A DNA stretch of 32,000 bases from Candidatus Saccharimonadota bacterium (GCA_016700135.1 CP065004.1:1110001-1142000); one strand, 5' to 3'; positions 1,240 through 28,333 are shown, counted from the first letter of the stretch. A program made the numbers and translations. The notes: generated from the sequence alone by a model not told the origin.

Positions 1240-1291
1240 TAGACATACTCTTAATCTTTAACAACCGCAGGGGTTGAGGTATACTTACATC

Positions 1292-1870
1292 ATGATCGGA
1301 AAGATAAAAGGTATCGTCTCTGAAATTGATGGTAATATTGCATTGGTAGAGACTGCTTCTGGACTTTTCTACAATGTATTTTTGACAAATGCTCTTCTTT
1401 CTGAATGCATGTCCGGTGATAAGATGGAAGTTTATACGTATCACCATATTCGTGAAGATGTCCAGTCTCTTTTTGGATTTCAAAATAAACAGGAATACAA
1501 GTTGTTTCTTCTTCTGATAAATGTCTCCGGAGTAGGCCCTAAATCAGCATATTCCATCATCTCAAACAGTAAAGTGGACGAGATAGTAGCAGCGGTCCGA
1601 TCAAATGATGCGAAGTACTTTACCCGCATTCCGGGACTTGGAAAAAAAACAGCCTTGAAAATCATGTTGGAACTATCGCAGAAATTTAAGTCTGAGTTTG
1701 TTTTGGAGAATAATTACGTTTCAAAAGAGGATCAGACGATTGTAGATGCTCTGACTTCTCTCGGTTTCGGTGCGACTGAAGCGAAAGAAATTCTTCCAAA
1801 ACTGTCTGATGAACTGTCTGTTGAAGAACAAATTAAAGAAGCAATACGATTACTTAGCAATCCGAACTAA
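1292..1870 (+). CDS. ruvA: Holliday junction branch-migration complex subunit RuvA
   Basis: The N-terminus MIGKIKGIV...ALVETASGLFYNV is typical of RuvA, and there are two helix-hairpin-helix motifs (INVSGVGPKSAYSII, FTRIPGLGKKTALKI). The ORF-track start at 1274 is a TTG. ATG 1292 matches the RuvA N-terminus and lies 6 nt after TATACT (1280-1285). Confidence 0.9.
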   Translation: MIGKIKGIVSEIDGNIALVETASGLFYNVFLTNALLSECMSGDKMEVYTYHHIREDVQSLFGFQNKQEYKLFLLLINVSGVGPKSAYSIISNSKVDEIVAAVRSNDAKYFTRIPGLGKKTALKIMLELSQKFKSEFVLENNYVSKEDQTIVDALTSLGFGATEAKEILPKLSDELSVEEQIKEAIRLLSNPN

Positions 1871-1918
1871 TCCTGGCGACCTTAAGCTAGTGGATACATC
1901 CTGTATAATGATACTACT

Positions 1919-2908
1919 ATGGCGAAATTGAATGATTTAGTGAGTTTGCGACCTGAAAGTCTAAGAGACTATGTTGGTCAGCAAAATGTTGTCAAAACAC
2001 TCCGATTATTTCTGGATGCGGTAAAAAACCGTGGTACCCCTGCAGAGCATATCCTTTTTTATGGGCCACCGGGTATCGGAAAAACAACACTCTCTCATAT
2101 TATTGCTCGTGAACTCAAAGGCACAATCCGTGTCACTTCAGGGGCTGCAATCACAAAAACCGGTGATTTGGCTGCAATTTTGACCAATCTGAAAGATAAT
2201 GATGTTTTGTTTGTAGATGAAATCCACAGACTTCCGAAACCTGTTGAGGAAATGCTGTATCCGGTGATTGAAGATTATTTTCTCGATATTGTGATCGGGA
2301 AAGGACCGTCTGCGCGAACGGTGCGTTTGCCTGTTCCGAAGATTACGGTGGTAGGGGCAACGACAAAACTTGCTCTCATCTCAGCCCCGATGCGTGACCG
2401 TTTCGGATTGTTGCTTCGCCTTGATTATTATACCGATCAGGATATGGTTGATATCATTATGAGATCGGCTGAACTTATGCATATCAAAATTACCAAAGGC
2501 GCAGCCTCTCAGATTGCCAAGCGTTCACGAAAAACCCCTCGTGTAGCTAATCGCATATTAAAACGTGCCCGAGATATTGTAGAAGTCGACGGACATGAGA
2601 TGATCGACGAAGATGTAGCTTTAAAGTTGTTTTCACTTTTGGAAATTGATGAAATGGGTTTGTCGGATATTGATATCCAGTATCTCCGCGTCATTGCAGA
2701 GCGTTTCCAAAACAGCCCGGTAGGGATTGAAACAATAGCCTCTTCCCTTGCGGAAGACAGAAGAACGATTGAAGAGTTTATTGAACCGTACTTATTGAGA
2801 ATCGGGTTTATTAAAAAAACTCCGCGCGGTCGGGTGGTGACACCGAAAGGATGTAAACATCTCAATATTGTGATTGATTCATCTGAGCAGCAAACAATAA
2901 TTGAATAA
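1919..2908 (+). CDS. ruvB: Holliday junction DNA helicase RuvB (AAA+ ATPase)
   Basis: Walker A GPPGIGKTT, Walker B VLFVDEIHRL, sensor region VGATT, RTPRVANRILKR and a C-terminal winged-helix region. The length (329 aa) is typical. TATAAT at 1904-1909 lies 9 nt before the ATG. Confidence 0.95.
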   Translation: MAKLNDLVSLRPESLRDYVGQQNVVKTLRLFLDAVKNRGTPAEHILFYGPPGIGKTTLSHIIARELKGTIRVTSGAAITKTGDLAAILTNLKDNDVLFVDEIHRLPKPVEEMLYPVIEDYFLDIVIGKGPSARTVRLPVPKITVVGATTKLALISAPMRDRFGLLLRLDYYTDQDMVDIIMRSAELMHIKITKGAASQIAKRSRKTPRVANRILKRARDIVEVDGHEMIDEDVALKLFSLLEIDEMGLSDIDIQYLRVIAERFQNSPVGIETIASSLAEDRRTIEEFIEPYLLRIGFIKKTPRGRVVTPKGCKHLNIVIDSSEQQTIIE

Positions 2909-4341
2909 TGTTATATTGGAGTATGGATGGAGAACCGCAATTCAAACCTGACTTAAAGAAGCCGCTTCTGAAAAGATCTGCGCTAGGACTTGCTGCTTTG
3001 GCGCTTTCAGCCACTGTCGGATTGACCGTCGATCATGTCACTGCACCATATAATCCTATTTTGGGAGGACCGAATAGATCAGAGTCAGCAATCGGTACAA
3101 AATTACTGGAAAAAACAGCTGAACTTCAACAAGATCATACGGAGAAAACCGGAAATCCAAAAGGCGGTATCTATGACCTTGTACACCTTGCCCCCCGCTT
3201 GTGGCACAGCGGGAACATTCCGCATTATTTAAAAGAGTTTTTGGGCGATAGATATACATCGGGTTTGCCTAGTTCAGCGGAGTTTTCTGAAGCGGTACAA
3301 GAATCAGAAAGCCCAGTGTTGCCTAAGTGGCTTGATACCGAAAGGTTTGATATCCAGTCATATGAAGCTGCAAACGGCGATCACATTGATACCCTAACAT
3401 TTAACTTAAAAGATGCTAAACCTCACCATTTGATACCCTGGCAGCGAACCGGCACGCTAACAGCACCGAATATCTACCTGGCCGATCCGAATCCCCTTTC
3501 TCGGAGTGACAATACATATACTCTAGGATCAAATCCGTACTTAGCACACTCTAACGGTGCTACTATTGAGCTTACATTTCCGAGTAATCAAACCGTCGTT
3601 TTTGGTGCAGGTTGGCATGAGGTCAGCCCACTCTATCGTTATGCAGACAAGGTTGAAGCAGAGAAAACCACGCAATATTACGGAAGAATTGATCCCAACA
3701 ATGATGCACAAGCTGCAACGGGTATTTATTCGATTCAAAATGGCTCTGTCACGATTCATCACGAATATGTCGGGCACCTTGATAGTGCGGATTATCCTCC
3801 ACAGTTTTTGTATATAGGAAATGGTACTGCCAGAATTTTGAAAGGAGCGCAACTTACGGATATACTAGAAAATCCCCCGTACGATGGCACTGTCACGCAG
3901 ATTGCTTATACCTTTGAATACTCAGATGAAGAACTGGAACTAATCAATGATGCAATGTACTCGTCCGAAGAAGAAAAAAAGCATGCATTAGATACTCTTC
4001 AAAAAAGTCTCGCTGATGATCTCACTCAACCGATCGATGTTACTTGGATGACTGTCGCAATAACAGAAGATGGAGATACGATTGTCAGCTTTGCTTTGAA
4101 CAGGGATACTGAAGCAGAGACAATAGAAGGTTCATATAAAGTTGTTGCATCAGTGAAAGACATCATTGAGAGTACAAAGAAACAGCCCGGATCTGTTCTT
4201 ACTCGCATGTTTACGGTACACCTTGGAGCACAAGGATCAACAGGTAATGTAATAATCACGAATGGTCAATCTTCAATCCCTGAAGGAGTAATAACCTATG
4301 AGACAATGCAGGAACTCATAAGCGATAAGCAGCGGGATTAG
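2908..4341 (+). CDS. Hypothetical membrane-anchored or exported protein (477 aa), no recognisable domain
   Basis: Long ORF with one N-terminal hydrophobic segment (SALGLAALALSATVGLTV) after a basic stretch. Its ATG overlaps the ruvB stop by 1 nt (TAATG at 2906-2910). No catalytic motif recognised. Confidence 0.65.
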   Translation: MLYWSMDGEPQFKPDLKKPLLKRSALGLAALALSATVGLTVDHVTAPYNPILGGPNRSESAIGTKLLEKTAELQQDHTEKTGNPKGGIYDLVHLAPRLWHSGNIPHYLKEFLGDRYTSGLPSSAEFSEAVQESESPVLPKWLDTERFDIQSYEAANGDHIDTLTFNLKDAKPHHLIPWQRTGTLTAPNIYLADPNPLSRSDNTYTLGSNPYLAHSNGATIELTFPSNQTVVFGAGWHEVSPLYRYADKVEAEKTTQYYGRIDPNNDAQAATGIYSIQNGSVTIHHEYVGHLDSADYPPQFLYIGNGTARILKGAQLTDILENPPYDGTVTQIAYTFEYSDEELELINDAMYSSEEEKKHALDTLQKSLADDLTQPIDVTWMTVAITEDGDTIVSFALNRDTEAETIEGSYKVVASVKDIIESTKKQPGSVLTRMFTVHLGAQGSTGNVIITNGQSSIPEGVITYETMQELISDKQRD

Positions 4342-4353
4342 TCTATCAACTTT

Positions 4354-4362
4354 TGTTATAAT
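4354..4362 (+). promoter_or_regulatory. Extended -10 promoter element TGtTATAAT upstream of tRNA-Leu(TAA)
   Basis: The sequence tTGtTATAATag runs from 4354 to 4362, and the tRNA starts at 4390. Confidence 0.5.
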
Positions 4363-4389
4363 AGAACCTGTTACTTTTGGAATATTTTT

Positions 4390-4473: not shown

Positions 4474-4499
4474 CAGCAGTAGAATCTTCTTCACACAAT

Positions 4500-4508
4500 T
4501 GTTATAAT
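4500..4508 (+). promoter_or_regulatory. Extended -10 promoter element TGtTATAAT upstream of tRNA-Thr
   Basis: The same 9-mer TGTTATAAT as at 4354. It ends only 9 nt before the mature tRNA 5' end at 4518. Confidence 0.5.
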
Positions 4509-4517
4509 ACTTACTTA

Positions 4518-4662: not shown

Positions 4663-4668
4663 TATAAT
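4663..4668 (+). promoter_or_regulatory. -10 hexamer TATAAT upstream of tRNA-Arg
   Basis: The sequence acacTATAATtac lies 34 nt upstream of the tRNA start at 4703. Confidence 0.4.
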
Positions 4669-4702: not shown

Positions 4703-4776
4703 GACCCTGTAGCTCAATTGGATAGAGCAACTCCCTTCTAAGGAGTAGGTTGTGAGTTCGATTCTCGCCAGGGTCG
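4703..4776 (+). tRNA. tRNA-Arg (anticodon TCT), no encoded CCA
   Basis: Acceptor stem GACCCTG/CAGGGTC with discriminator G. Anticodon stem-loop is actcc-ctTCTaa-ggagt and the T arm is gtgag-ttcgatt-ctcgc. Confidence 0.9.
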
Positions 4777-4779
4777 CAT

Positions 4780-5187
4780 ATGCCACATACATTCCAACCG
4801 GTCATACTTGCTGTTATTGAACAGGACGGTAAATATCTCTTTACTAAACGAATTGATGATTTTCCTGATTACCACGGCAAATGGCAGCTTTCGGGCGGCG
4901 GCCTTGAATTCGGAGAAAATCCTGTTGAAGGTCTTCGTCGGGAACTCAGAGAAGAGCTTGGAGTTGAAGTTACTGATGTGAAGATAATTCCGTTTGTAGA
5001 TACCCGCGTCAGAAATGACTGGCAGGGAGTATTTATCTCATTTCACTGTCACCTTGAAAACCCGGACGCGGAGATTTATCTGAATGAAGAGGCTTCAGAG
5101 TATCGCTGGTTTGAGAAATCTGAGATTGACTACTCCCAATTCCCCATCTTCGAGGGATGTGTCGAGATAGTCCAAAAACTAGTGTAA
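4780..5187 (+). CDS. Nudix hydrolase (MutT-like, 135 aa)
   Basis: Complete Nudix box GGGLEFGENPVEGLRRELREELGV (GX5EX7REUXEEXGU). The ATG begins 3 nt after the tRNA-Arg discriminator base. Confidence 0.85.
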   Translation: MPHTFQPVILAVIEQDGKYLFTKRIDDFPDYHGKWQLSGGGLEFGENPVEGLRRELREELGVEVTDVKIIPFVDTRVRNDWQGVFISFHCHLENPDAEIYLNEEASEYRWFEKSEIDYSQFPIFEGCVEIVQKLV

Positions 5188-5242: not shown

Positions 5243-5957
5243 GGCTCTAGACTAGCACATTAACAATTTGTAATAGTTCATTGTAAAGGATCGATGGGGA
5301 TTTGCTCCATCTCCATTCACACTCTTTCAAGTGTAATGGAAAGTTTTTCTTTACACCATTGAACTTAACGAGACGTCTTTTACAAAAGGACCAGAATGAC
5401 TCTATGCCATTGATATGGACCCCTTTTGTATTTGAGAACTCATTTTTCTTGTGATTGATTCTCAAATGTTTGTCATACCCGACATCAACAAGTCCGTTGT
5501 ATCCGCTCCACGAATCTGAATATACAGTACTGTTCAAGTCAATCTTTCCCTTCATAACAGCATGTAGCGTTCTTCTTTTACAGTTTGGAATGATACGAGT
5601 AAATACACGTCCTTGACGCTCATATATCCCAAATACTACCTGCTTAAATGACGTCCCACGACCTCTTTTACTTGACTTGCCTCTCATCCTTCGAGGTCCA
5701 AAGTATGATTCATCAATTTCTATCTCACCACCAACATATCGTTGCATCTGGTGCACTTGGTGATGATATATGAGTTGACGAATATTATTGTAATATTTGT
5801 TGACTGTATTGCGGTTGAGACCCAAAATACCAGAGGTCTGTGTAGCACTCAGATCGTGTGCAAAACACCATAGTATCTTTTTTCTCTTGTATTTTGATAT
5901 CGGCCTATTGTTACAAACCATACCTCTAGTTTAGCACTACTCTGCTAGTCTAGAGCC
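5243..5957 (-). mobile_element. IS1595-family insertion sequence, copy A (715 bp)
   Basis: 15-bp perfect terminal inverted repeats GGCTCTAGACTAGCA (5243-5257) and TGCTAGTCTAGAGCC (5943-5957). It is flanked by the direct repeat TAACATA (5236-5242 and 5958-5964) and has a single transposase ORF. By eye it is identical to 15548-16262. Confidence 0.85.
5247..5921 (-). CDS. IS1595-family (ISXO2-like DDE) transposase, 224 aa
   Basis: Motifs EIDESYFG, RGRG...K..VFGIYER.G.V, SDSWSGY, HINGIESFW..KRRL and FPLHLKECEWR are typical of the DDE_Tnp_IS1595 domain. The N-terminal helix-turn-helix is SATQTSGILGLNRNTVNKY. Confidence 0.8.
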   Translation of the reverse strand: MVCNNRPISKYKRKKILWCFAHDLSATQTSGILGLNRNTVNKYYNNIRQLIYHHQVHQMQRYVGGEIEIDESYFGPRRMRGKSSKRGRGTSFKQVVFGIYERQGRVFTRIIPNCKRRTLHAVMKGKIDLNSTVYSDSWSGYNGLVDVGYDKHLRINHKKNEFSNTKGVHINGIESFWSFCKRRLVKFNGVKKNFPLHLKECEWRWSKSPSILYNELLQIVNVLV

Positions 5958-8081: not shown

Positions 8082-8090
8082 ATTATATCA
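8082..8090 (-). promoter_or_regulatory. Possible extended -10 (TGaTATAAT) upstream of tRNA-Leu(GAG)
   Basis: The minus strand reads TGATATAAT. An imperfect hairpin (about 8046-8073) lies between it and the tRNA, so the hairpin could instead be the terminator of the upstream SBP gene. Confidence 0.3.
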
Positions 8091-9484: not shown

Positions 9485-9703
9485 TTAATGAACAAAAAAA
9501 TTCGCGACAGACAGTACGAAAAAGAGGAAAATACAGATGTATGTAAGGTTCATAGTAAATTTTTCGACACCTCGACGCGATTGGTACATCTCTCCTCCAC
9601 CGCCCCAGGCACTGCCCAGACCTGCGCCTTTTCCCTGAAGCAGAATCAACACGACAATTGCAATAGATAAAACGATGTTTACAATAAGCAAAATATCTTT
9701 CAT
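9485..9703 (-). CDS. secG: Preprotein translocase subunit SecG
   Basis: MKDILLIVNIVLSIAIVVLILLQGKGAGLGSAWGGGG...: two TM segments flank the glycine-rich loop typical of SecG. The ORF-track start at 9760 overlaps uvrC. ATG 9703 is preferred and is preceded by TATAAT (9718-9713). Confidence 0.8.
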   Translation of the reverse strand: MKDILLIVNIVLSIAIVVLILLQGKGAGLGSAWGGGGEMYQSRRGVEKFTMNLTYICIFLFFVLSVANFFVH

Positions 9704-9713
9704 AGTTGTTTTA

Positions 9714-10985
9714 TTATAGCATCTTTTTACTTCGAAGATGAACGTGATACTTTTTGGCAAAGCGGTGAGACTCGTCTCTCATTGACTGTACTAGTCTGAA
9801 ACCGGGATGATGACGAGGTGGCTTGATAGTGAGAAGGGTGTCATCTCCGATCACAATCCTGTCCGGCCGTTTTGCGATTCCGATAAGAGGAATTGTCACC
9901 TGCATCGCATCCAGAACTTCTTTCGCTGCACGGATCTGAGGCTTTCCTCCGTCTAAAATCACCAACTCAGGCTCAGGCCATTTATTTCTGAATCTCCTTG
10001 TCATAATCTCCTTAAACATGTCAAAATCGGACTGGACGTTCTCTCCTTTAATTTTGAATCGTTTGTATTCTTTTTTGTCACTCAATCCTTCAGTAAAAAC
10101 CACCATTGATGCGGTGCTGTTTTCAAACGACATAGTACTCATGTCGTAGCATTCGATCCTTTCAAGTTTCGGCAGATCATAATATGGTCGCAGAAGCTGC
10201 TGCAGAGACTTTACCCGTTTTTCTGATTTGTTGTACTCTTCAAGATTATTCGTATCAAACTTTCGTCGAAGAAGTACTCCTTCCAATCTGAACAATCGGT
10301 TACGATACGGTATTGCGTCTTCATACTTATCCTCTTTCGTCAGTACACTGATTTTTTTATACAGCTTCTCAATGACTATCTCCGTTTTCCCGTCTAGAAC
10401 CCGTACGGCATTGCGGATATTGTCTTTATATTGCTTTTGCAATTCTTTCTTCAATTCGGGAGAATCCGTTTTTTCTATTTCATTCGGACAGGGGTCACAG
10501 AGTTTTATCTTTGCATAAAAACACCTTCTGTTAGTAATACTTTTTTGTGTACAAAACGGAAAAACCTTTCTTATTTCTCGGAGAATATCGGCAGCAACAC
10601 GGACAGAAGAAAACGGTCCGAAATAGATTGCTCCCTTTTCGTCTTCTTTTCTCGTGATAAAAAATTTCGGATATTGGTCCTGTTTTGTGACTTTGATATA
10701 CAGATAGCTTTTGTCATCTCTCCATCTGACGTTGTATCTCGGTTTATGCTTTTGGATCAGTTTTGACTCAAGAAGAAGCGCTTTAAATTCCGAATCCGTG
10801 ACGATGTGCTCTATACTGTCGGCGCCTTCCACTATTGCCCGTTCTTTTGCATCATTTTTGGCATTTTCAATATGAGACTTAACTCGGGCTCTGATATTGA
10901 CTGACTTGCCGATATAGATCGGTTTGCCTTTAAGTTTGAAGATATAGATACCATTAGTAGTGGGGAGATCCTTGGTTTCGAACAT
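9714..10985 (-). CDS. uvrC: Excinuclease ABC subunit C, short form (423 aa) lacking the C-terminal (HhH)2 domain
   Basis: GIY-YIG motif (GIYIFK...PIYIGKS...R...H), a four-Cys cluster (FCTQ...RCFYAKIKLCDPCP), a UVR-like helix (KEDKYEDAIPYRNRLFRLE) and RNase-H-like endonuclease motifs (RIECYDMS, YKRFKIK, LVILDGGKPQ, IGIAKR, DESHRFA). The ORF ends right after HRFAKKYHVHLRSKK. Confidence 0.9.
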   Translation of the reverse strand: MFETKDLPTTNGIYIFKLKGKPIYIGKSVNIRARVKSHIENAKNDAKERAIVEGADSIEHIVTDSEFKALLLESKLIQKHKPRYNVRWRDDKSYLYIKVTKQDQYPKFFITRKEDEKGAIYFGPFSSVRVAADILREIRKVFPFCTQKSITNRRCFYAKIKLCDPCPNEIEKTDSPELKKELQKQYKDNIRNAVRVLDGKTEIVIEKLYKKISVLTKEDKYEDAIPYRNRLFRLEGVLLRRKFDTNNLEEYNKSEKRVKSLQQLLRPYYDLPKLERIECYDMSTMSFENSTASMVVFTEGLSDKKEYKRFKIKGENVQSDFDMFKEIMTRRFRNKWPEPELVILDGGKPQIRAAKEVLDAMQVTIPLIGIAKRPDRIVIGDDTLLTIKPPRHHPGFRLVQSMRDESHRFAKKYHVHLRSKKML

Positions 10986-13867: not shown

Positions 13868-13905
13868 AGAAGAACCTATTAGTTTACACGGTTTTAGCAG
13901 AAAGA

Positions 13906-18484: not shown

Positions 18485-19351
18485 ATGCAAGTACTGGTGC
18501 AGGAAGGCTTTCCTGATTACGAACTAATAGATTCCGGAGACGGCATGAGACTTGAACGCTTTGGTCCGTATCGTATTGCACGGCCTGATCCGCAGGTACT
18601 TTGGAAAAAGCACGCTCCTGAGCATATGTGGAAACGGGTAGATGCTCTTTTTGATAAATCCACAGAGCGGGGCCAATGGAAGGTCTTAAATAAACTTCCC
18701 GATCACTGGCAAATCCGGTACAATGACCTCCATTTCCACGCACGGCTTACTCCTTTTAAACATACAGGTATTTTCCCCGAACAGGCTATAATGTGGGACT
18801 GGACAACCAATTTGATTCGGAAATCTCATCGCAAAATTAAAGTATTAAATTTGTTCGGGTATACGGGGATAGCTTCTGTCGCGGCGGCAAAAGCCGGTGC
18901 ACAGGTCACTCATGTTGATGCTTCCAAACCCTCGATCACATGGGCCAATGAGAACATGAAGGCTTCGGGATTACCAAACGATGCTATTCGATGGATACTG
19001 GATGACGCTCTCAAATTTACGAAACGGGAAGTACACAGAGGGAATTTTTATGACGGGATTATTATGGATCCCCCGGTCTACGGTCACGGTCCGAAAAAAG
19101 AAGCATGGGATTTTTACAAGCATATGCCCGTTCTTCTTGAACATTGCGCAAAAATTCTTTCACCGCATCCTCTCTTTTTCCTGATCAATGCTTATGCAAT
19201 CTCTTCTTCTGCCATCATGCTCGGAAATATAATGCAGGATTTGATGATTCAGCACAAAGGGAAAACCGAATACGGAGAACTTGCACTCAGAGAGAGCTTC
19301 GGTAAGCGTCTTCTGTCTACAGGAATCTATTCGAGATGGCAATCTCACTGA
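18485..19351 (+). CDS. Class I SAM-dependent methyltransferase (RlmI/RlmK-like rRNA methyltransferase family)
   Basis: SAM-binding motif VLNLFGYTGIASVAAAKAGA..VTHVDAS and catalytic IIMDPPVYGHG (DPPxY/F type). The size and layout match the Methyltrans_SAM family. Confidence 0.7.
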   Translation: MQVLVQEGFPDYELIDSGDGMRLERFGPYRIARPDPQVLWKKHAPEHMWKRVDALFDKSTERGQWKVLNKLPDHWQIRYNDLHFHARLTPFKHTGIFPEQAIMWDWTTNLIRKSHRKIKVLNLFGYTGIASVAAAKAGAQVTHVDASKPSITWANENMKASGLPNDAIRWILDDALKFTKREVHRGNFYDGIIMDPPVYGHGPKKEAWDFYKHMPVLLEHCAKILSPHPLFFLINAYAISSSAIMLGNIMQDLMIQHKGKTEYGELALRESFGKRLLSTGIYSRWQSH

Positions 19352-19621: not shown

Positions 19622-19657
19622 AAGTAATACAAATTTATAATGAGTTATAATAGATAT

Positions 19658-20341
19658 ATGCTAACCGTAGTAGGAACCCCGATCGGCAATCTTGAGGATG
19701 TCTCATACAGACAAGCCAGGACACTTACTGATTCCGATATCATTCTAGCAGAGGATACGCGTTCGGCGCAAACACTCCTTCATGCGATCGAGCATCTGTT
19801 CGGCATGAAACCGAAAGAAGGACAGAAAATTATTTCCTATTACAAAGAGAAAGAATTTGAAAAACTTCCCGGTATTATTGATGATCTTGAGGCCGGAAAA
19901 ACGGTCAGTCTGATTTCAGAAGCGGGAATGCCGGTGATCTCCGATCCCGGATTTTTGCTTATTTCGACCGTGATTAAGAAAGGATTACCGTATGAAGTCA
20001 TACCCGGCCCGTCAGCAGTAACGACGGCACTGCTTCATTCAGGTATCAAATTCAGCAGATTTATGTTTCTGGGATTTTTGCCGAAAAAAGAACTGGAGTT
20101 TGAAAGACTGCTCATCAACATCAGAGATATCCGTCAGATTGCAAATCACACTGCATTTATTGCTTTTGAGTCTCCTCACAGGATCAATCAGACACTTGCA
20201 GTCATGGAAAAAGTTTTTCCTGATGCTGAAATTGTGATAGCGCGTGAGCTTACCAAGAAATTTGAGGAGATCTTTCGCGGGAAGGCGGCAGAATTAAAAG
20301 GCAAAGAATACCGCGGTGAAATAACGCTTATTTTTTCCTGA
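19658..20341 (+). CDS. rsmI: 16S rRNA (cytidine1402-2'-O)-methyltransferase RsmI
   Basis: MLTVVGTPIGNLEDVSYRQARTL...ILAEDTR...ISEAGMPVISDPG is the tetrapyrrole-methylase-fold RsmI signature. ATG 19658 is preferred over the track start at 19640 and is preceded by TATAAT at 19646-19651. Confidence 0.85.
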   Translation: MLTVVGTPIGNLEDVSYRQARTLTDSDIILAEDTRSAQTLLHAIEHLFGMKPKEGQKIISYYKEKEFEKLPGIIDDLEAGKTVSLISEAGMPVISDPGFLLISTVIKKGLPYEVIPGPSAVTTALLHSGIKFSRFMFLGFLPKKELEFERLLINIRDIRQIANHTAFIAFESPHRINQTLAVMEKVFPDAEIVIARELTKKFEEIFRGKAAELKGKEYRGEITLIFS

Positions 20342-20356: not shown

Positions 20357-20911
20357 TTACTGTTCGTATTCAGGAAAGTTTTCGTCTCCGTTAAATTTAG
20401 CTTCGGTATCTGCAGGTCTCGAATTATTGTTAAGCCATTCAATGTATGTACAACCTGTTGCTTTTCTTGTTTCACGATCCCAACCTGAAGTACTGCATTT
20501 CTTCATTCTTTTCCCGTTTGCTGTAGTCACAAGGACGAGATTCTCTCCGCATGTCGGACATTTTTCATCCAATTCTTCTTTTGTACCGTTGAACCATTCG
20601 ACGAAATCACAACCTGTCGCTTTCCTGGCTTCACGGTCCCATCCTCCTTTGCTGCATTTCTTCATTTTTTTGCCTGTTCTTGTGGTTGCCATGACAAGAG
20701 GTGCGCCGCATTTGGGACATTTTTCATCTAGTTCTTCAGGTTCAGGAGTAAACCACTTGACATAATCACAGCCTTCCACCTGTCTGGTTTCGGGATTCCA
20801 TGATCCGGTAGAACATCGTTGAAGTTTTTTACCGGTCGGTGTTTCTTCTACTGGAGACAAAGGTGATCCGCATTTCGGACAGTTGGTTAGTTTTGAATCT
20901 TTAGTTGCCAT
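20357..20911 (-). CDS. Stand-alone protein with three topoisomerase-IA-type C4 zinc-ribbon repeats (YrdD-like)
   Basis: Three ~53-aa repeats of CP.CG.(P)L....T..GK...CS..GW......TGC....W (for example ELDEKCPKCGAPLVMATTRTGKKMKKCSKGGWDREARKATGCDFVEWF). TACAAT at 20923-20918 lies 6 nt before the ATG. Confidence 0.7.
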   Translation of the reverse strand: MATKDSKLTNCPKCGSPLSPVEETPTGKKLQRCSTGSWNPETRQVEGCDYVKWFTPEPEELDEKCPKCGAPLVMATTRTGKKMKKCSKGGWDREARKATGCDFVEWFNGTKEELDEKCPTCGENLVLVTTANGKRMKKCSTSGWDRETRKATGCTYIEWLNNNSRPADTEAKFNGDENFPEYEQ

Positions 20912-20972
20912 CTGAACATTGTATACTCTGATCAGTAAGATTACAAGAGATATATGTAATTACTTATCTTTA

Positions 20973-22023: not shown

Positions 22024-22824
22024 TCAAAGATTTTTCCAAATAAGAGCAGTCAAAAAGATAAGTCCGGAGACGACGGCTATCATTGGACCTGACGGAACGT
22101 TAAACAGATATGAACCCGTCAATCCGATTATGACGGAGATCGTCGAAAATATCGGTGCAAGAACAAACATGCTTTTCAAAGATCCGGCAAACAATCGTGA
22201 TGTTGCTGCAGGAATGATAAGAAGTGCATTTACCAAAACTATTCCGACCAGCTGAATACCGATTACGATTGAGATTGCGAGTGCTACATGATAGATCATG
22301 TCAATCATACCGACGCGGATTCCGAGAAGTTGTGAATATTCTGCATCAAAGGCAATATTCAGAAGTTTTTTGTGGTATACCCTGGCTACGAAAAAGAGTA
22401 CTATCGCTGTAACTCCTGTGAAAATAATATACTCCCAACTTATCCCGAGAATGCTTCCGAATAGAAAGCTCATGAGCTCCGGTTGGTAGCCTGGAGTTAC
22501 GGAAAGCAGGATCACTCCGATTGCCATAGATACAGGTAGGATAATACCGAGCAGACTGTCAGTATGGAGATCGGACTTTTTCCTCAAAACAGGGAGGATA
22601 AAGGCGACAAGAACGGCATACAGCAGAGAAAGAAGCAGCGGATTCACCCCGAACAGTATTCCCAAAGCCACGCCTGTTAGGGAAGAATGAGCTATGGCAT
22701 CACCGAAAAATGATGAGCGGCGAAGCATGGCAAAAATCCCGAAGTATGCAAGCAGCAAGGCAATAATTATGCCTCCGATAAATGCACGCTGCATGAAAGG
22801 TAGTGTAAGTATTGAAATGTCCAT
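22024..22824 (-). CDS. znuB: Metal (Zn/Mn-type) ABC transporter permease, ABC-3 family
   Basis: Polytopic membrane protein that begins MDISILTLPFMQRAFIGG, typical of ZnuB/MntB/TroC. Its ATG overlaps the upstream ATPase stop by 1 nt (TAATG at 22826-22822). Confidence 0.75.
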   Translation of the reverse strand: MDISILTLPFMQRAFIGGIIIALLLAYFGIFAMLRRSSFFGDAIAHSSLTGVALGILFGVNPLLLSLLYAVLVAFILPVLRKKSDLHTDSLLGIILPVSMAIGVILLSVTPGYQPELMSFLFGSILGISWEYIIFTGVTAIVLFFVARVYHKKLLNIAFDAEYSQLLGIRVGMIDMIYHVALAISIVIGIQLVGIVLVNALLIIPAATSRLFAGSLKSMFVLAPIFSTISVIIGLTGSYLFNVPSGPMIAVVSGLIFLTALIWKNL

Positions 22825-23543
22825 TAGGTTTTGTCGTGATGGTGACCGTAGAACTTCAAATGATGTCCGTACAAATTCTGAAACATTTCCTGGGTAAGTA
22901 CATTTTGCGTTCCGGTACAAACAAGTTTTTGATTGATGCAGAGAACATTGTCTGCAAATGTATGAACGATATCAAGTTCGTGCGTTGCAATAAGGACTGT
23001 CAAATGTTTTTCCGTAACAAGCTTCTGCAGGAGCGTGTAAAATGATTGTTCTCCTCCGACATCGACTCCGGCTTCCGGTTCATCTAGAATCAGAAGCTGA
23101 GGGTTTTGAAGGAGAGATCGTACTAAAAGAATTCGTTGAAGCTGGCCTCCGGAGAGTGCAGAAAGAAGTTTCCTATCTTTCCCTTTCATGTTCACTTCCT
23201 CCATGAGGGTGCTGATCTCATCATCAAAACTTTTCTGGGCGCAGGATAAATGCAAAAATTCATGCACGGTGATAGGAAAAGAAGTATCAAAACTGAAGCG
23301 CTGAGGAACATATCCGATTCGGTTCAGTTGTTCACGGACATCCCTATCGTTTAGACGAATCTTGCCTTTAAAGGGTACAAAACCGAGTATTGCCTTAAGA
23401 AGAGTTGATTTCCCTGAGCCGTTGGGACCGATTAATGCCGTGATGGACTCTGGCTTCAGTTCAAATGAAATATCCTCAATAGCGTTGTGAGATGCATGCG
23501 GATATCTGACCGTTACATTTTTTACTTCAAGTATTGGTGACAT
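22824..23543 (-). CDS. znuC: Metal ABC transporter ATP-binding protein
   Basis: Walker A GPNGSGKST, signature LSGGQLQR, Walker B LLILDEP and a His-rich C-terminal tail (GHHLKFYGHHHDKT). Confidence 0.8.
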   Translation of the reverse strand: MSPILEVKNVTVRYPHASHNAIEDISFELKPESITALIGPNGSGKSTLLKAILGFVPFKGKIRLNDRDVREQLNRIGYVPQRFSFDTSFPITVHEFLHLSCAQKSFDDEISTLMEEVNMKGKDRKLLSALSGGQLQRILLVRSLLQNPQLLILDEPEAGVDVGGEQSFYTLLQKLVTEKHLTVLIATHELDIVHTFADNVLCINQKLVCTGTQNVLTQEMFQNLYGHHLKFYGHHHDKT

Positions 23544-24479
23544 TTATTGTAGGGCTTGGGTAATCTGATTAACATTATAGCGCATAAGAGAAACAAATGA
23601 ATCTTTGTCAGGAACTCCTCCGATCGGATCAAGCTGTGATATTGAAATTTCAAGATCAGCTGCAATCGGCTCCAGAGAAGTTGTTGAGAATTGAGGCTCA
23701 GCAAATACTACACGAATATCATCCTCCTCGATATGATCGATAAATTCCTGCACATATTCCGGCGAAGGCTCTTCCCCGGGAAATTCTTCAAAAGTAGTCA
23801 CAACTTCAATATCATACTCTTCAGCAAGGTATCCGAACGCATTGTGAAATGTTGCAATACGTTTGTTCTCAATCGCTTGCAGCTTTGACCGATTGTCCTG
23901 ATCAAGTGCTGCCAATACAGCTTCATACTCATTGTAATTTTGTTCAAAGGATTCCTTGTGTTCAGGATACAACTTACTAAGTTCATCTCGTATCTGTGCG
24001 GCTATGGCTTTTCCGTTCTCAATACTGAGCCAGTAATGCGGGTCAGTTTGTTCTGAGTAATTGTTCTCTGCTACTTCTTCTCCTGTTTTCTCGTCATGTG
24101 AGTGGTTGGCTCCTGTATATGGTAATAATTTAATTTTTTCATCTACCACGACCTGATTCTTAACTCCAGCTGATTCTGCAACGGAAGTACTCCAGTTGTC
24201 TATCCCGTGTCCAATCATAAACAAAGTATCAGCGCCTTGGAGGGTTTTTACTGTTTCTGGTGAAGGTTCGTATGAATGAGGGCTTGCACCTGCCGGCAAT
24301 AATAGTACTATTTCAACATTGTTTCCGGCAATGTTCTTTGTAATATCGTATAAAGGAAAAATGGTAGTAGCAACCTTTTGACGGTCTAAGTCAGTCTCCT
24401 TCCCCTGTCTGTTATATCCCAAAACAATAACTAATGCCAAAATGATACCCAGAAAAAGAAGAAATAATATTTTTTTCAT
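23544..24479 (-). CDS. znuA: Metal ABC transporter substrate-binding protein (cluster A-I, ZnuA-like)
   Basis: N-terminal anchor, metal-ligand motifs GASPHSYEPSP and DPHYW, and an acidic/His-rich loop (GANHSHDEKTGEEVAENNYSEQTD) characteristic of Zn-specific members. Confidence 0.75.
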   Translation of the reverse strand: MKKILFLLFLGIILALVIVLGYNRQGKETDLDRQKVATTIFPLYDITKNIAGNNVEIVLLLPAGASPHSYEPSPETVKTLQGADTLFMIGHGIDNWSTSVAESAGVKNQVVVDEKIKLLPYTGANHSHDEKTGEEVAENNYSEQTDPHYWLSIENGKAIAAQIRDELSKLYPEHKESFEQNYNEYEAVLAALDQDNRSKLQAIENKRIATFHNAFGYLAEEYDIEVVTTFEEFPGEEPSPEYVQEFIDHIEEDDIRVVFAEPQFSTTSLEPIAADLEISISQLDPIGGVPDKDSFVSLMRYNVNQITQALQ

Positions 24480-24520
24480 AAATCTAGTATATGCAACTGA
24501 TTTGCATTTGTCAATATTGA
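24480..24520 (-). promoter_or_regulatory. znuA promoter (TTGACA-17 nt-TATACT) with a palindromic operator in the spacer
   Basis: The minus strand reads TTGACA(24514-24509)-aatgcaaatcagttgca-TATACT(24491-24486)-agattt-ATG(24479). The palindrome ATGCAA-n5-TTGCAT occupies 24491-24507. A second palindrome TCAATATTGA (24511-24520) overlaps the -35. Confidence 0.65.
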
Positions 24521-24568
24521 TATAATCGAACGCTCCGGGAAAATACCATAATCCAGTATAATTGTTCT

Positions 24569-25030
24569 ATGCCGAAACCGACGCCGATTCTTTTCACAAA
24601 GGAAGGATACGAAACACTGCAAAAGGAACTTACTACTCTCAAATCAAAGAGACCTGAATATGTGCAGGAACTTACAAAAGCTGCAGAGCTCGGAGACCGC
24701 AGCGAAAACGCAGCCTATAAATATGCCAAACAGAAACTAAGACAAACAGACAGCAGACTTCGTTATCTGGAAAAAACACTGGACCGGGCAAAAGTCGTCG
24801 AAGCGACTCAGCATGAATATATTGAAATCGGTTCATCAGTTATTATGCATAACGGTACAAAAGAGTGCGCATACCGTATTGTCGGAGGTAATGAATCGGA
24901 TCCCTCAAAAGGGCTTCTTTCCTATCAGTCCCCTCTTGGACAAGCATTGCTGAGGAAAAAGACAGGGGATAAGGTTTCGATAACAACACCTGTGGGTACG
25001 GTGATCTATACAATCCTCAAAATCAGTTAG
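24569..25030 (+). CDS. greA: Transcription elongation factor GreA
   Basis: Coiled-coil N-domain with GDRSENAAYKYAKQ and a C-terminal globular domain (SYQSPLGQALLRKKTGDKV). The length is 153 aa. TATAAT at 24557-24562 lies 6 nt before the ATG. Confidence 0.9.
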   Translation: MPKPTPILFTKEGYETLQKELTTLKSKRPEYVQELTKAAELGDRSENAAYKYAKQKLRQTDSRLRYLEKTLDRAKVVEATQHEYIEIGSSVIMHNGTKECAYRIVGGNESDPSKGLLSYQSPLGQALLRKKTGDKVSITTPVGTVIYTILKIS

Positions 25031-25262
25031 CTTCAGGGAACTCTACATCACAAGCCATTGCCGTACACATGACTTCTCCGTTCTGACACGAACAGGAATT
25101 ACACTCATCCTGAAAGCCTTCTCCGTCTTTGTAAGTAATGCCTTTGTAGGTACATGACAAAGGAATGATATTTTTTACCGGATTTGTATCCAGTTTTGCA
25201 ATCATCAGACCGAGCACTACCCCGATACCGATTAGCAGGATATACAGTAAATATTGTTTCAT
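25023..25262 (-). CDS. Small membrane-anchored or exported cysteine-rich protein (79 aa), VWC-like Cys pattern
   Basis: N-terminal hydrophobic segment (LLYILLIGIGVVLGLMIA), then CTYKGITYKDGEGFQDECNSCSCQNGEVMCTAMAC. TATAAT at 25276-25271 lies 8 nt before the ATG. The 3' end overlaps the greA 3' end by 8 nt. Confidence 0.6.
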   Translation of the reverse strand: MKQYLLYILLIGIGVVLGLMIAKLDTNPVKNIIPLSCTYKGITYKDGEGFQDECNSCSCQNGEVMCTAMACDVEFPEAN

Positions 25263-25271
25263 ATGAAATCA

Positions 25272-26060
25272 TTATATATCTTTTTGCTCGTTTAGCTCCT
25301 GAAATAATTGATGAGCAGTAAAAAGTTTTTCTTCAAAGATGTCTTCTTCTTCCTCTCCGTCGGGGACCAGACACTGCTGGTGTTCATTCAATTCATAGTT
25401 ACCGGCACAGTATTGCTCCCATTTCCAAGTATAGATATTCAGTGTTGCAAATATTCCCCCTACTATGTATTGACGGAGCGCGGGAATATATGGAATCTTT
25501 CCTGTCTGAATGGCATTGGGTACCGCAAGTGACGCAATCCACCTTCTGATATCGATTTCTTCCTGTTCCCGGGTTTTGACGGCCCAGTTCCCCAGCGAAA
25601 GATTCAGTGAAGGTCCACGGATCGCAGGGTCATACCTATGGCTATCGGATGCAGTGGTCTCTCTCAGTCTTTGAAGCTTAATATTTATACCGAGGACAGG
25701 ATCAGGCGCATCGTCAATTTGCCGGCCTACTACAAGGTCAATCCCGTGTCTCCCGGGTCTTCCATGTTCGAGTTGGGGTGATGCGAGACTTACCGTGTAT
25801 CCGGCACTTTCAAGCGGCGAGATTAGGCTGATGTATGAAGCCCATTCAGCCATAAAAGCATGAGAATCATTTCTTTCATCAGTTCCGTTTGATGCAATAT
25901 AATCTTCTAGTGCCGCGCGTCTTCGGTTGATAAAACCGTTTGTAGCATATGCGGTTTCAAGGATGTGCGGATCAAACGACTGATACGGAAGGCCAGCACT
26001 GTATGCTGCTTCAAAGTCTTCAATAAACTGCAGTGCTCGAGGCGATTCGAGTGTAAGCAT
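25272..26060 (-). CDS. Hypothetical protein (262 aa), no recognised domain
   Basis: Long ORF with a coding-like composition and an acidic C-terminus (DGEEEEDIFEE). TATAAT at 26076-26071 lies upstream. No signal peptide seen. Confidence 0.55.
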   Translation of the reverse strand: MLTLESPRALQFIEDFEAAYSAGLPYQSFDPHILETAYATNGFINRRRAALEDYIASNGTDERNDSHAFMAEWASYISLISPLESAGYTVSLASPQLEHGRPGRHGIDLVVGRQIDDAPDPVLGINIKLQRLRETTASDSHRYDPAIRGPSLNLSLGNWAVKTREQEEIDIRRWIASLAVPNAIQTGKIPYIPALRQYIVGGIFATLNIYTWKWEQYCAGNYELNEHQQCLVPDGEEEEDIFEEKLFTAHQLFQELNEQKDI

Positions 26061-26208
26061 CAATAATTTTATTATAGAGAGTTCATGGTATTCGTCCAGT
26101 AGGTTTTACAGTAATTTACATATCAGAGAGTATACTTTTAGCCTCAAAAGTAAGCATATTGTCGGAAGGCCATATTGAGATCAGCCATAAGTGTTTTATA
26201 ATAAACCC

Positions 26209-26928
26209 ATGCCGATATTTGAGCTTCCGAAACCGACTATTATTTCCGCGGATTCATCAACGGGATCAGGAATTGTGTTTCATCCCGACAGCGGATTTAT
26301 TTCACATACGGCCCAAAAGCACGAAAAACCAGACGGTGAAGCTGCTCGAATGGCTTCGTACCGGCTGGGAGTTCTTCCTTCAGGTGAGGTTCTTGCTTCG
26401 TATGACATTCATTTACCTGCGGGAACAGCGAGTGTATCAGTGTATGAAAACGGAGGAGACGAAATCGCAGCAGATTTTTCGATACAGGCACATGATTGGG
26501 AAAGAGAGCAGATATTAGCTGAGTCGGTATTTTCTCCGCGTTTATTATCAACCGTCGTTCGGGGTGCTCATATTTTTTTTGGCTGCACTGTCGAACGAGC
26601 AGCTTCAGGACAACATTGCGTTGAGGTCTATGATTTGAACGAAAATAAAAGTATCAAGTCACTTCAAACGGCATTGAAAGAAGATGAACAAGCGGTCATT
26701 GACGGTGTACGGGTATATTGCCGTGGAGGATACATTTCGCTGCGGATGGAGGCAATGGGTTATACTTCAGGTATTGTCCTTCCGTTCAGCCTGCCGTTTG
26801 AAAGATACAGAGAGATGCAGGACGTACTCAAACAGCCAAATCCTCTCGATTTCAATCCTCTGGACGTTCCGATCCCTCATCTGGGAACATCGGTTCGTTT
26901 TGCCCGTGATGATATTTATCGGCAGTAG
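26209..26928 (+). CDS. Hypothetical protein (239 aa), no recognised domain
   Basis: ATG 26209 (MPIFELPKP) is preceded by TATAAT at 26197-26202 with a 6-nt gap. The track start at 26191 is a GTG inside the promoter. Confidence 0.55.
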   Translation: MPIFELPKPTIISADSSTGSGIVFHPDSGFISHTAQKHEKPDGEAARMASYRLGVLPSGEVLASYDIHLPAGTASVSVYENGGDEIAADFSIQAHDWEREQILAESVFSPRLLSTVVRGAHIFFGCTVERAASGQHCVEVYDLNENKSIKSLQTALKEDEQAVIDGVRVYCRGGYISLRMEAMGYTSGIVLPFSLPFERYREMQDVLKQPNPLDFNPLDVPIPHLGTSVRFARDDIYRQ

Positions 26929-27283
26929 GTTCAGCGCAGTTCTGCTGTGCATTAAGATATCGGGCGATTGAATGACCTGCAAAACCCATCATTCGGAAGA
27001 TGCCGATTCCCGTACCGAAGGTCACTCCCGTCGTAATTTCCGCTTTTGCCGCGACATCACAATATGCTGGGACAAAATCTTTTCCTAACAGTGATTGGGT
27101 TGTCCGATCATATAGTTGCTGCGCTTCTTCAGGAGCCGTGTCATAAAGTTGTTGAGTTGCATCACATATATAGTTTGGTGTACCTTCATCCTGTGTCAGG
27201 CGTACTCCGTGAAAAATAAGTCCTGCTCCTACGACGGCCCGTACGGTTTTCCCTAAAAACGCTCTTCTGGATATGCGTTCCAT
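26852..27283 (-). CDS. Hypothetical exported protein with a twin-arginine (Tat)-like signal
   Basis: MERISRRAFLGKTVRAVVGAGLIF matches S/T-R-R-x-F-L-K followed by a hydrophobic region. The ATG lies 1 nt after the stop of the SGNH gene (TAAtATG). The 3' end overlaps the convergent ORF 26209-26928 by 77 nt. Confidence 0.5.
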   Translation of the reverse strand: MERISRRAFLGKTVRAVVGAGLIFHGVRLTQDEGTPNYICDATQQLYDTAPEEAQQLYDRTTQSLLGKDFVPAYCDVAAKAEITTGVTFGTGIGIFRMMGFAGHSIARYLNAQQNCAEPTADKYHHGQNEPMFPDEGSERPED

Positions 27284-27284
27284 A

Positions 27285-28307
27285 TTAGTGTAATCCGGCA
27301 ATGTCTAATAACTCATCAGTCGTAAGCGACTCAATCGGGGATGTAAGGTACGGATTTATGTGTTCTATAAGGTAATTTGCAAATAAACCGTTGAGAACGG
27401 TACCTGAGTGGATTCCGTCCGATAGAAACAAATTTTGAGGATTATTCTGCCCGATATACTGGTCAAGAATGATATCTCCGACTTTTACCTGATAATCAGT
27501 CTCACTTCCCCGCAAGCCCTGGAAAAAGTCATTTGTCTCAATAATATGTGCCCCATATTTTTCAGCTACATCTGCAATTTTAGCGTTAGTTTCATTGATG
27601 ACTTGCGTGACGAGATACCGTTTATAAGGAAGCGGGAAACCGATTTTAACCGCTGTGTGATTTCCCCAATCAGGGATTGTTACGATAAAAATTTCGGGGT
27701 CGCCTGCAGCCTGAAGCGTTTCAACTGCTGTTTGAATATCCGCGACTATGAGATTCTCCTTTTGAATAATGTCTTCCCGACTCATTTCTTCGTTATAAAT
27801 TGCACTATATGCATTGTCATACAGATACGGGGCAAAATCATTCGCTCCGATATAGATTACTACTACGTTTACTTCTCCGCTTTTAACATACTGGGCCAGT
27901 CCGGCATGCTGGTCAGATGAAATCATGGACGCAGCAGTGGCACCTGACCGGGCAAAATTGTATTCATACCCCTGTCTTCTGGGTTCTTCATAATAATTCC
28001 ATGTTCCGAAGTTGACATTTCTTTTATTTGCCAAAATCTCAACCCAATTATACGTAGAGGTCGGATAATTCGTCCCGCGTTTGTCATCAGCACGGTATTC
28101 GTCTGACTGGCTGTCTCCCAGTATACCGATCCCTTTCAAAGGAACTTGCTCGATGGGTGTAGGTTTGACCAAGTACTTCTGAATTTGATCGATGACAAAT
28201 TGAGGTTTCCATGTGAGCATCACAACACCCGAAATGAATGCCATAACGGCAATAAAAAGCATAAAATAAAATGCTGCTTTCAGAATATTGATGAGGGTGT
28301 TTTGCAT
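27285..28307 (-). CDS. SGNH/GDSL-family hydrolase (esterase/lipase-like), N-terminally membrane-anchored
   Basis: All four SGNH blocks are present: GILGDSQSDEY (I), FARSGATAA (II), IYIGANDF (III) and LSDGIHSG (V). The N-terminal TM segment is AAFYFMLFIAVMAFISGVVML. ATG 28307 is preceded by TGaTACAAT (28321-28313). Confidence 0.75.
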   Translation of the reverse strand: MQNTLINILKAAFYFMLFIAVMAFISGVVMLTWKPQFVIDQIQKYLVKPTPIEQVPLKGIGILGDSQSDEYRADDKRGTNYPTSTYNWVEILANKRNVNFGTWNYYEEPRRQGYEYNFARSGATAASMISSDQHAGLAQYVKSGEVNVVVIYIGANDFAPYLYDNAYSAIYNEEMSREDIIQKENLIVADIQTAVETLQAAGDPEIFIVTIPDWGNHTAVKIGFPLPYKRYLVTQVINETNAKIADVAEKYGAHIIETNDFFQGLRGSETDYQVKVGDIILDQYIGQNNPQNLFLSDGIHSGTVLNGLFANYLIEHINPYLTSPIESLTTDELLDIAGLH

Positions 28308-28333
28308 GTCGTATTGTATCAAATATGAGATTT

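Follow-up and report, generated by a model that had tools for sequence, protein, structure and literature searches.

How is translation begun in a bacterium in which a promoter element stands almost directly in front of the start codon? The question is raised by a 32-kb stretch of DNA, here called the window (positions 1110001-1142000 of CP065004.1, assembly GCA_016700135.1, recorded as Candidatus Saccharimonadota bacterium; approximately 42% GC), where a hexamer of the TATAAT type, the -10 element of bacterial promoters, recurs a few nucleotides before the ATG of many genes. The reading favoured here, to which we give a probability of roughly 0.85, is that about half of the genes, including most first genes of transcription units, are placed directly behind a sigma-70-type promoter and would be transcribed into leaderless mRNAs.

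The window harbours ruvA, ruvB, a cluster of three tRNA genes, a NUDIX gene, two identical copies of an IS1595 insertion sequence (IS), secG, uvrC, uvrA, an rve-type IS, uvrB, an S-adenosylmethionine (SAM) methyltransferase gene, rsmI, ddl, znuCBA, greA, a gene for an SGNH hydrolase and several hypothetical open reading frames (ORFs). The curated gene set consisted of the 30 protein genes with a start inside the window. For comparison, 19 related loci were used, each surrounding uvrB and together amounting to approximately 290 kb. Three of them share synteny with the window, with a nucleotide identity of 90% in L001, 80% in L003 and 75% in L019, and are referred to below as the syntenic relatives.

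The hexamer and the start codon

The original prediction had listed 15 genes with such a hexamer. The 45 nt upstream of each ATG were read again, and all 15 hexamer and ATG coordinates were found to be right, as were the counts of nine genes with a gap (the nucleotides between the end of the hexamer and the ATG) of exactly 6 nt and six genes with gaps of 5-10 nt. Eleven of the 15 hexamers were perfect TATAAT. The second IS1595 copy, which had not been listed, displayed the same arrangement and brought the total to 16 of the 30 genes starting in the window:

1280-1294, plus strand: ruvA; -10 TATACT at 1280-1285, gap 6, ATG 1292; -35-like TTAACA at 16 bp; RuvA_N from residue 1
1904-1921, plus strand: ruvB; -10 TATAAT, gap 9, ATG 1919
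5919-5933, minus strand: IS1595 transposase, copy a; TGcTAAACT, gap 6, ATG 5921; Pfam DDE_Tnp_IS1595
9701-9718, minus strand: secG; TGcTATAAT, gap 9, ATG 9703; hexamer holds the uvrC TAA stop; kept in L001 and L003
10983-10998, minus strand: uvrC; TATAAT, gap 7, ATG 10985; hexamer holds the uvrA TAA stop
16224-16238, minus strand: IS1595 transposase, copy b; TGcTAAACT, gap 6, ATG 16226
18325-18339, minus strand: uvrB; TATAAT, gap 6, ATG 18327; arrangement kept in at least 15 orthologues from the Candidate Phyla Radiation (CPR), with TGn in distant ones
18473-18487, plus strand: SAM methyltransferase; TATAAT, gap 6, ATG 18485; kept in the syntenic relatives and L005, flanks diverged
19646-19660, plus strand: rsmI; TATAAT, gap 6, ATG 19658; TP_methylase from residue 1; kept in relatives
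20909-20923, minus strand: Zn-ribbon protein; TACAAT, gap 6, ATG 20911; -35-like TTGTAA at 17 bp; kept in the syntenic relatives
24477-24514, minus strand: znuA; TTGACA-N17-TATACT-N6-ATG 24479, a full sigma-70 promoter with 11 of 12 matches; kept in the syntenic relatives
24557-24571, plus strand: greA; TATAAT, gap 6, ATG 24569; kept in relatives
25260-25276, minus strand: Cys-rich ORF of 79 aa; TATAAT, gap 8, ATG 25262; hexamer holds the orf262 TAA stop; kept in relatives
26058-26076, minus strand: orf262; TATAAT, gap 10, ATG 26060 (a TTG lies at 7 nt); kept in relatives
26197-26211, plus strand: orf239; TATAAT, gap 6, ATG 26209; -35-like TTGAGA at 16 bp, 11 of 12 matches; kept in relatives
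28305-28318, minus strand: SGNH/GDSL hydrolase; TGaTACAAT, gap 5, ATG 28307

Overlap of hexamers with the preceding stop codon, reported for several genes, was seen in three (uvrC, secG and the Cys-rich ORF), each time with the upstream TAA inside TATAAT. The statement that none of the genes has a GGAG-like element does not hold literally, as GAGG occurs 12 nt upstream of ruvA and 1 nt upstream of IS1595; neither spacing is functional. An ORF for a PEP-utilising enzyme, with an ATG at position 34 and TATAAT 1 nt upstream, was ruled out, its frame being open to the left edge of the window and its start lying outside.

Frequency of the arrangement

Genes were also called by a mechanical rule blind to the motif (ORFs of at least 90 aa, greedy non-overlap, start at the first ATG). 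A strict -10 was defined as a TAnnnT hexamer (T1, A2 and T6) with at least 5 of 6 matches to TATAAT and was counted at a gap of 5-9 nt. It preceded 11 of the 27 genes called, seven of them at gap 6, compared to approximately 0.6-1.1 expected (binomial P = 3e-12 versus the window-wide hexamer frequency), and none of the 27 genes had a strict -10 at a gap of 11-29 nt. When the upstream 40 nt were shuffled 5000 times with dinucleotides preserved, the mean was 1.13 and the maximum 5, and 11 was never reached. Among the other 1097 ATG trinucleotides, the strict hexamer was present before only 2.3%.

A test independent of start assignment gave the same picture. On both strands together there were 35 perfect TATAAT, 12 of which had an ATG at gap 6-10 and five at exactly 6, with approximately 0.55 expected per gap position. 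Eleven of the 12 opened real genes, and four further TATAAT preceded tRNA genes. These numbers bear out the earlier claim that the hexamers are too frequent for chance. The histogram of hexamer-to-ATG distances, drawn up for the window and for the loci of its relatives, was not flat and displayed a sharp peak at 6 nt.

Lineage and conservation

UvrB matched proteins of 98, 94 and 91% identity in metagenome-assembled genomes (MAGs), and the named members among the matches were Candidatus Roizmanbacteria (UBA1450; CP066689.1 at 67%). More distant matches belonged to Levybacteria and 'Patescibacteria group' at 56-60% and to unrelated phyla at about 50%. Judged by UvrB identity, the window is Candidatus Roizmanbacteria (CPR/Patescibacteria, Microgenomates). 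The records of eleven MAG loci (L001-L004, L006, L008, L011, L014, L015, L017 and L018) are titled 'uncultured Gammaproteobacteria'; these titles look like placeholders or mislabels, since UvrB, synteny and promoter architecture point to Roizmanbacteria and other CPR.

The gap-6 peak recurred in 23 of 50 genes in close relatives, in 37 of 82 genes in L002 and the loci of approximately 70% identity, and in 26 of 117 genes in a group of approximately 58% identity, against 19 of 661 genes (3%) with a strict -10 in non-CPR loci. The share per locus in Roizmanbacteria was 31-65%, except in the short, higher-GC locus L010 (1 of 5 genes). In the eight non-CPR loci with matching GC content (0.41-0.44) the arrangement was found in 0% of the genes, which excludes composition as the cause. 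The trait is strongest in Roizmanbacteria and is weaker, yet present, in neighbouring Microgenomates-like lineages. A relaxed -10 (A2, T6, at least 4 of 6 matches) was dropped as uninformative, relaxed-only matches amounting to 13% here versus 17% in the GC-matched non-CPR loci.

In the methyltransferase gene, uvrB, rsmI, greA, znuA, the Zn-ribbon gene, the Cys-rich ORF, orf262 and orf239, TATAAT and its distance to the ATG were kept in the syntenic relatives and often in L002, L004 and L005. Alignments of these orthologues displayed a footprint: the sequence 5′ of the hexamer could not be aligned and the 6-nt spacer was altered, with the hexamer and the spacing unchanged. In uvrB of L011-L018, the group of approximately 58% identity, TGnTA(A/C)AAT-N6-ATG/GTG was kept, and the non-CPR orthologues had ordinary upstream regions of the Shine-Dalgarno (SD) type. 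These footprints are, at the level of sequence, the strongest argument for function.

The gaps between -10 and ATG had a second peak at 9 nt (approximately 15 cases; gaps of 6, 7 and 8 nt accounted for 37, 10 and 4 cases, respectively), as counted in the window and the Roizmanbacteria loci L002, L004-L010 and L019, partly from closely related loci.

Promoter element or ribosome-binding site

The commonest hexamer at -12 to -7 of the start codon was TATAAT itself (21 of 131 genes in the window and the Roizmanbacteria loci), followed by the variants TACAAT and TATACT. When 56 sites were aligned on the hexamer, T (57%) and G (46%) stood at positions -15 and -14, the TGn positions of an extended -10, and a weak TTGaaa-like signal was present 17 bp upstream. 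A pyrimidine preceded the ATG in 73% of genes, with A at +1; a pyrimidine at -1 and a purine at +1 form the usual context of a transcription start site. The tRNA genes of the window share the element, with TGnTATAAT before three of the four and TATAAT before the fourth, at a variable distance of 9-46 nt upstream:

4354-4362, plus strand: promoter of tRNA-Leu(taa), TGtTATAAT
4500-4508, plus strand: promoter of tRNA-Thr(tgt), TGtTATAAT, 9 nt before the tRNA
4663-4668, plus strand: promoter of tRNA-Arg(tct), TATAAT
8082-8090, minus strand: promoter of tRNA-Leu(gag), TGaTATAAT

Because it also precedes untranslated tRNA genes, the motif is the -10 element of the organism and not a translation signal. 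Among protein genes it was found at divergent and spaced genes and at three closely spaced co-directional genes, and it was absent from the tightly coupled internal genes znuB, znuC and SBP5 and from the NUDIX gene. Across the window and the CPR loci, an SD 4-mer at functional spacing preceded only 2-11% of genes, and no gene combined a strict -10 with an SD 4-mer at spacing 3-11.

An A/U-rich element at the position of a ribosome-binding site (RBS), in genomes where SD motifs are rare, might alternatively be a non-SD binding or standby site on a leadered mRNA, of the kind known from Bacteroidetes or as an S1-dependent enhancer; three sites lie no more than 10 nt behind a gene on the same strand, where transcripts reading through are plausible. 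We regard this as very unlikely, as the consensus matches the sigma-70 -10 box exactly and is accompanied by an upstream TGn and, at 17 bp, by a -35-like signal, the motif is shared with all four tRNA genes (with TGn in three), and the gaps have their sharp maximum at 6 nt, which is the distance from -10 to +1. The coupled internal genes, moreover, do not have it, whereas the motifs of Bacteroidetes (GeneMarkS-2 group B) precede all genes (PMC6028130).

Assignment of start codons

The ATG beside the hexamer is anchored in seven genes. A Pfam domain begins at residue 1 in RuvA (RuvA_N) and RsmI (TP_methylase) and at residues 4-11 in SecG, GreA, RuvB and UvrC (GIY-YIG), and in UvrB the conserved N-terminal motif F-x-L-x-S begins at residue 3. 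Among the trinucleotides following TATAAT-N6, ATG was found 28 times in 220, approximately 3-fold more often than the runner-up with 10. It is improbable, to about the same degree as a ribosome-binding role for the hexamer, that the promoters are real and the genes nevertheless leadered, with the true starts further downstream and the adjacent ATG unused. Such a shift is easiest to imagine for orf262, orf239 and the Cys-rich ORF, in which no domain anchors the N-terminus, and the starts in general have no proteomic support; against it stand the seven proteins whose domain or motif begins 1-11 residues after the ATG, the roughly threefold preference for ATG over any other trinucleotide and the retention of the ATG at the same spacing in orthologues.

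That the arrangement is an artefact of AT-rich intergenic DNA, TAA stops and starts picked to follow a TATAAT has a negligible probability, although the original prediction did choose the starts by eye and TATAAT includes a TAA, which overlaps a stop codon in three cases. This reading is effectively already refuted by the same outcome under the mechanical first-ATG rule, unmatched in 5000 shuffles, by the empty interval at gap 11-29, by the 0% in non-CPR loci of equal GC and by its persistence across diverged orthologues.

Genes without the arrangement

The other 14 of the 30 genes were mostly coupled to a preceding stop codon or abutted a tRNA gene, and a few were led by an SD sequence. The start of SBP5 is located 3 nt beyond secG. 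Three junctions of stop and start codons are:

2906-2910, plus strand: ruvB stop and orf477 start, TAATG overlap, a coupled start without SD
22822-22826, minus strand: znuC stop and znuB start, TAATG overlap
23541-23546, minus strand: znuA stop and znuC start, TAAATG, start directly after the stop

A recognisable SD was found before orf175 (GAGAGGA) and orf223 (AAGGAG), the clearest SD-led starts of the window and both in its right end of higher GC. These few genes suggest that the 16S rRNA retains an intact anti-SD tail; a 16S rRNA gene was not found in the window by Rfam, nor by conserved 16S words in 80 fetched loci. In ddl and uvrA a -10 lies 12-13 nt from the start, predicting short leaders, and at gap 10 of the genes for DUF202 and orf139 there is just a hexamer weakly resembling a -10 (4 of 6 matches). 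Upstream of orf662, the rve IS and orf149 no start signal was recognised.

The right end of the window (28381-32000) has a GC content of 0.45-0.48, and its ORFs gave no Pfam matches. The alignment with L001 and L003 stops at approximately 28.2-28.5 kb, where those fetched loci end.

Upstream of uvrA, for which ATG 13867 and not GTG 13939 was taken as the start, the conserved sequence TGTAAACTAATAGGTTCTTCT occupies 13868-13890 on the minus strand, with a -10-like TAAACT 13 nt from the ATG. It was kept in L001 and L003, with partial retention in L019 and L002, and it would correspond to a leader of 6-7 nt or to a regulatory site. A perfect TATAAT was also present in the 3′ end of znuA (23574-23579, minus strand), 30 nt before the ATG of znuC and kept in the syntenic relatives; it may be an internal promoter giving a short leader or merely conserved coding sequence.

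ORFs abutting tRNA genes

The NUDIX gene begins directly behind a tRNA gene, and comparable junctions, with 0-4 nt between tRNA and ORF, were found in related loci, among them the following:

4703-4782, plus strand: tRNA-Arg(tct) to NUDIX; discriminator G at 4776, then CAT, then ATG, 3 nt between
L007, 20672-20747: tRNA-ORF junction
L009, 20155-20242: tRNA-ORF junction
L015, 4864-4945, minus strand: tRNA-ORF junction
L018, 15339-15420, minus strand: tRNA-ORF junction

Among the tRNA genes, 8 of 26 in CPR and 0 of 24 in non-CPR loci were followed at 0-9 nt by the ATG of an ORF with a length of 60 aa or more (Fisher P = 0.004, orthology ignored), the eight including looser cases at +7 and +9. 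NUDIX genes with a mutual identity of only 26-31% follow three different tRNAs, namely Arg-tct (window and L019), Leu-taa (L009) and Gly-ccc (L015 and L018), and a radical-SAM gene begins at +0 after tRNA-Arg in L007. Between tRNA and abutting ORF there is no space for a promoter or an RBS. The layout suggests that, given expression of these genes, 3′ processing of the tRNA would yield near-leaderless mRNAs with a leader of 0-3 nt, and it lends independent, circumstantial support to 5′-end-dependent initiation.

Proposed mechanism and its weak points

The mechanism may be depicted as follows: The housekeeping sigma-70 holoenzyme would read a strong, often extended -10 (TGnTATAAT) with a weak or absent -35. 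With the -10 ending 6 nt (range 5-10) before the ATG, the first transcribed nucleotide would be the A of the ATG or lie within 1-3 nt of it. The mRNA would then have a 5′-AUG, no 5′ untranslated region (UTR) and no SD sequence and would be translated by 5′-end-dependent, leaderless initiation. The remaining genes would rely on SD-independent coupling of stop and start (TAATG, TAAATG), on a start behind a tRNA or, in a minority, on a conventional SD. Only approximately 15-35 bp are required for such a promoter, and for this reason it is frequently nested within the final codons of the gene before it.

Several observations weigh against this reading. A generic scan for TTGACA-N16-18-TATAAT gave 45 hits compared to 44.6 in shuffles, the top matches being znuA, orf239, orf262 and ddl; as the two-hexamer pattern is not enriched, most sites are without a recognisable -35 and consist of the -10 only. 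The transcription start site is inferred from the usual 7-nt distance between -10 and +1 and from the Y(-1)/A(+1) context, and the mode of ribosome recruitment is a prediction as well. Gaps of 7-10 nt predict leaders of 1-3 nt unless start-site choice is flexible, and the peak at gap 9, which would mean a 3-nt leader, stays unexplained. Transcripts from promoters further upstream may also run on into co-directional genes, whose ATGs would then be internal on those transcripts, and the IS1595 hexamer TAAACT is only a 4/6 match. A search for terminators gave no enrichment over shuffles.

Taking a -10 box that ends 6 nt ahead of the ATG as the sign of a leaderless mRNA follows the published in-silico criterion (PMC3160421; PMC6028130). 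At sequence level a promoter is supported, over an RBS or chance, by TGn, the -35 signal, the pyrimidine at -1 with A at +1, the tRNA promoters, conservation, lineage specificity and the rarity of SD. The description of the transcriptome as largely leaderless fits if transcription units are counted; counted by genes, it shrinks to about half (16 of 30).

In E. coli and actinobacteria, leaderless initiation proceeds by direct binding of 70S ribosomes, or of 30S with initiation factor 2 (IF2) and formylmethionyl-tRNA (fMet-tRNA), to the 5′-terminal AUG. It is independent of SD and largely of S1. CPR bacteria form a huge, deep and uncultured radiation, whose reduced ribosome is without uL30 and bL9. 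The CPR ribosomes are described as reduced, with a short bS1 of 3-4 domains (PMC9297842). Near-exclusive use of ATG in the window fits the strict 5′-AUG requirement known from E. coli (PMC3848588). The reduced CPR ribosome may be linked to leaderless initiation. A bolder proposal, which we offer tentatively and consider rather doubtful, is that in Roizmanbacteria, and less so in other Microgenomates, 5′-end-dependent initiation is the default and SD is almost out of use. ATG-abutting promoters and tRNA excision would both supply mRNAs that begin with AUG. If true, this would tie the reduced CPR ribosome to an initiation mode of ancestral type.

Relation to known systems

To our knowledge, leaderless initiation is the sole mode common to all three domains, and it is often argued to be ancestral. 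The annotation pipeline of the National Center for Biotechnology Information (NCBI) employs GeneMarkS-2, and a leaderless model may already be applied there to these genomes. A TANNNT motif approximately 10 bp upstream of the start was taken as the mark of leaderless genes by Zheng et al. 2011 (PMC3160421), who put the share of such genes above 20% in Actinobacteria and above 30% in Deinococcus-Thermus. Group C of GeneMarkS-2 (PMC6028130), mostly from those two phyla, is defined by a Pribnow box that precedes the start by 6-8 nt, and 25-50% of its transcripts are predicted to be leaderless; as cited in that paper, differential RNA sequencing (dRNA-seq) confirmed leaderless transcripts in M. 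tuberculosis and D. deserti. In the actinobacterium P. acnes, approximately 29% of leaderless mRNAs begin with GUG (PMC3848588). In the open-access literature no report linking leaderless mRNAs with CPR/Patescibacteria was found, the closest being the report that the anti-SD often goes undetected in one Parcubacteria subgroup only (PMC9297842).

By its sequence features, the present case is 'TA-led' and of group C; the mechanism is textbook, and the value of the case lies in its lineage and magnitude. As in group C (Mycobacterium, Streptomyces, Deinococcus-Thermus), the -10 is located 6-8 nt from the starts of first genes, there is no SD and a minority of genes keep an RBS. Unlike in group C, the host is a CPR/Microgenomates bacterium with approximately 42% GC and a reduced genome and not a high-GC actinobacterium or Deinococcus, the hexamer is a full TATAAT, often TGn-extended, and not TAnnnT, and the starts are almost only ATG compared to the approximately 29% GUG in P. 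acnes. The share is also higher, approximately 44% of genes by the strict rule (16/30 in the curated set) versus more than 20-30% in silico there, and SD is scarce elsewhere.

Extended -10 promoters of sigma-70 similarly have TG one base 5′ of a near-consensus -10 and a weak or absent -35, and the tRNA genes here share the element; the placement against the start codon is no property of that class, and TG occurs in only about half of the present sites. In archaeal leaderless genes (group D), too, the spacing between promoter element and start codon is fixed and the mRNA begins at the AUG, as would be the case here. Their TATA box lies approximately 22-26 nt upstream, whereas the element of the window is a bacterial -10 at 6 nt with none at gap 11-29. 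With the non-SD RBS of Bacteroidetes (group B) the window has in common an A/T-rich motif near the start and few SD in the genome. That motif stands before all genes, internal ones included, and is no promoter; the present one is absent from coupled genes and present before tRNAs. Finally, the ORFs abutting tRNA genes resemble the tRNA punctuation of mitochondria, an AUG lying 0-4 nt after a tRNA whose 3′ processing would free a (near-)terminal AUG. They differ in being few loci on a bacterial chromosome, with the processing being a prediction from gene layout.

If about half of CPR genes are leaderless and SD plays a marginal part, gene callers and the start annotation of CPR MAGs should use a leaderless model; the mechanical first-start calls for ruvA, rsmI and SGNH fall on an upstream codon inside the promoter. 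Regulation in the 5′ UTR, by riboswitches or by small RNAs targeting the RBS, would have to be rare, control being concentrated on promoters instead (compare the operator-like znuA palindrome described below), and promoters inside upstream coding ends would add to genome compaction. The map of bacteria rich in leaderless genes would then widen beyond Actinobacteria and Deinococcus-Thermus, giving a new data point for models of the evolution of initiation.

Individual promoters and genes

The spacer between -35 and -10 of the znuA promoter is filled by the inverted repeat ATGCAA-N5-TTGCAT (24491-24507, minus strand), which was kept in the syntenic relatives and probably acts as the operator for a metal repressor of the Zur type.

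The divergent promoters of uvrB and the methyltransferase gene mirror each other in a 23-nt inverted repeat of 83% complementarity (18333-18355 and 18457-18479). In both, AT(A/C)AGC abuts TATAAT on its 5′ side, and the same was found in the orthologues of L003 and L019. The mirror repeat could be the site of a shared regulator or mark a promoter subclass.

The Cys-rich ORF (25023-25262, minus strand) looks secreted and has Pfam matches to Pacifastin inhibitor and VWC-type modules (E = 2e-9), which are unusual in a bacterium. The ORF and its putative leaderless promoter were kept in the syntenic relatives.

The IS1595 copies occupy 5247-5933 and 15552-16238 on the minus strand and have identical promoter-ATG regions, and the rve-integrase IS is located at 13906-14988 on the minus strand. 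The insertions at 13917-15032 and 15548-16262, which separate uvrA from uvrB, are missing in the 90%-identical relative L001 and so are recent.

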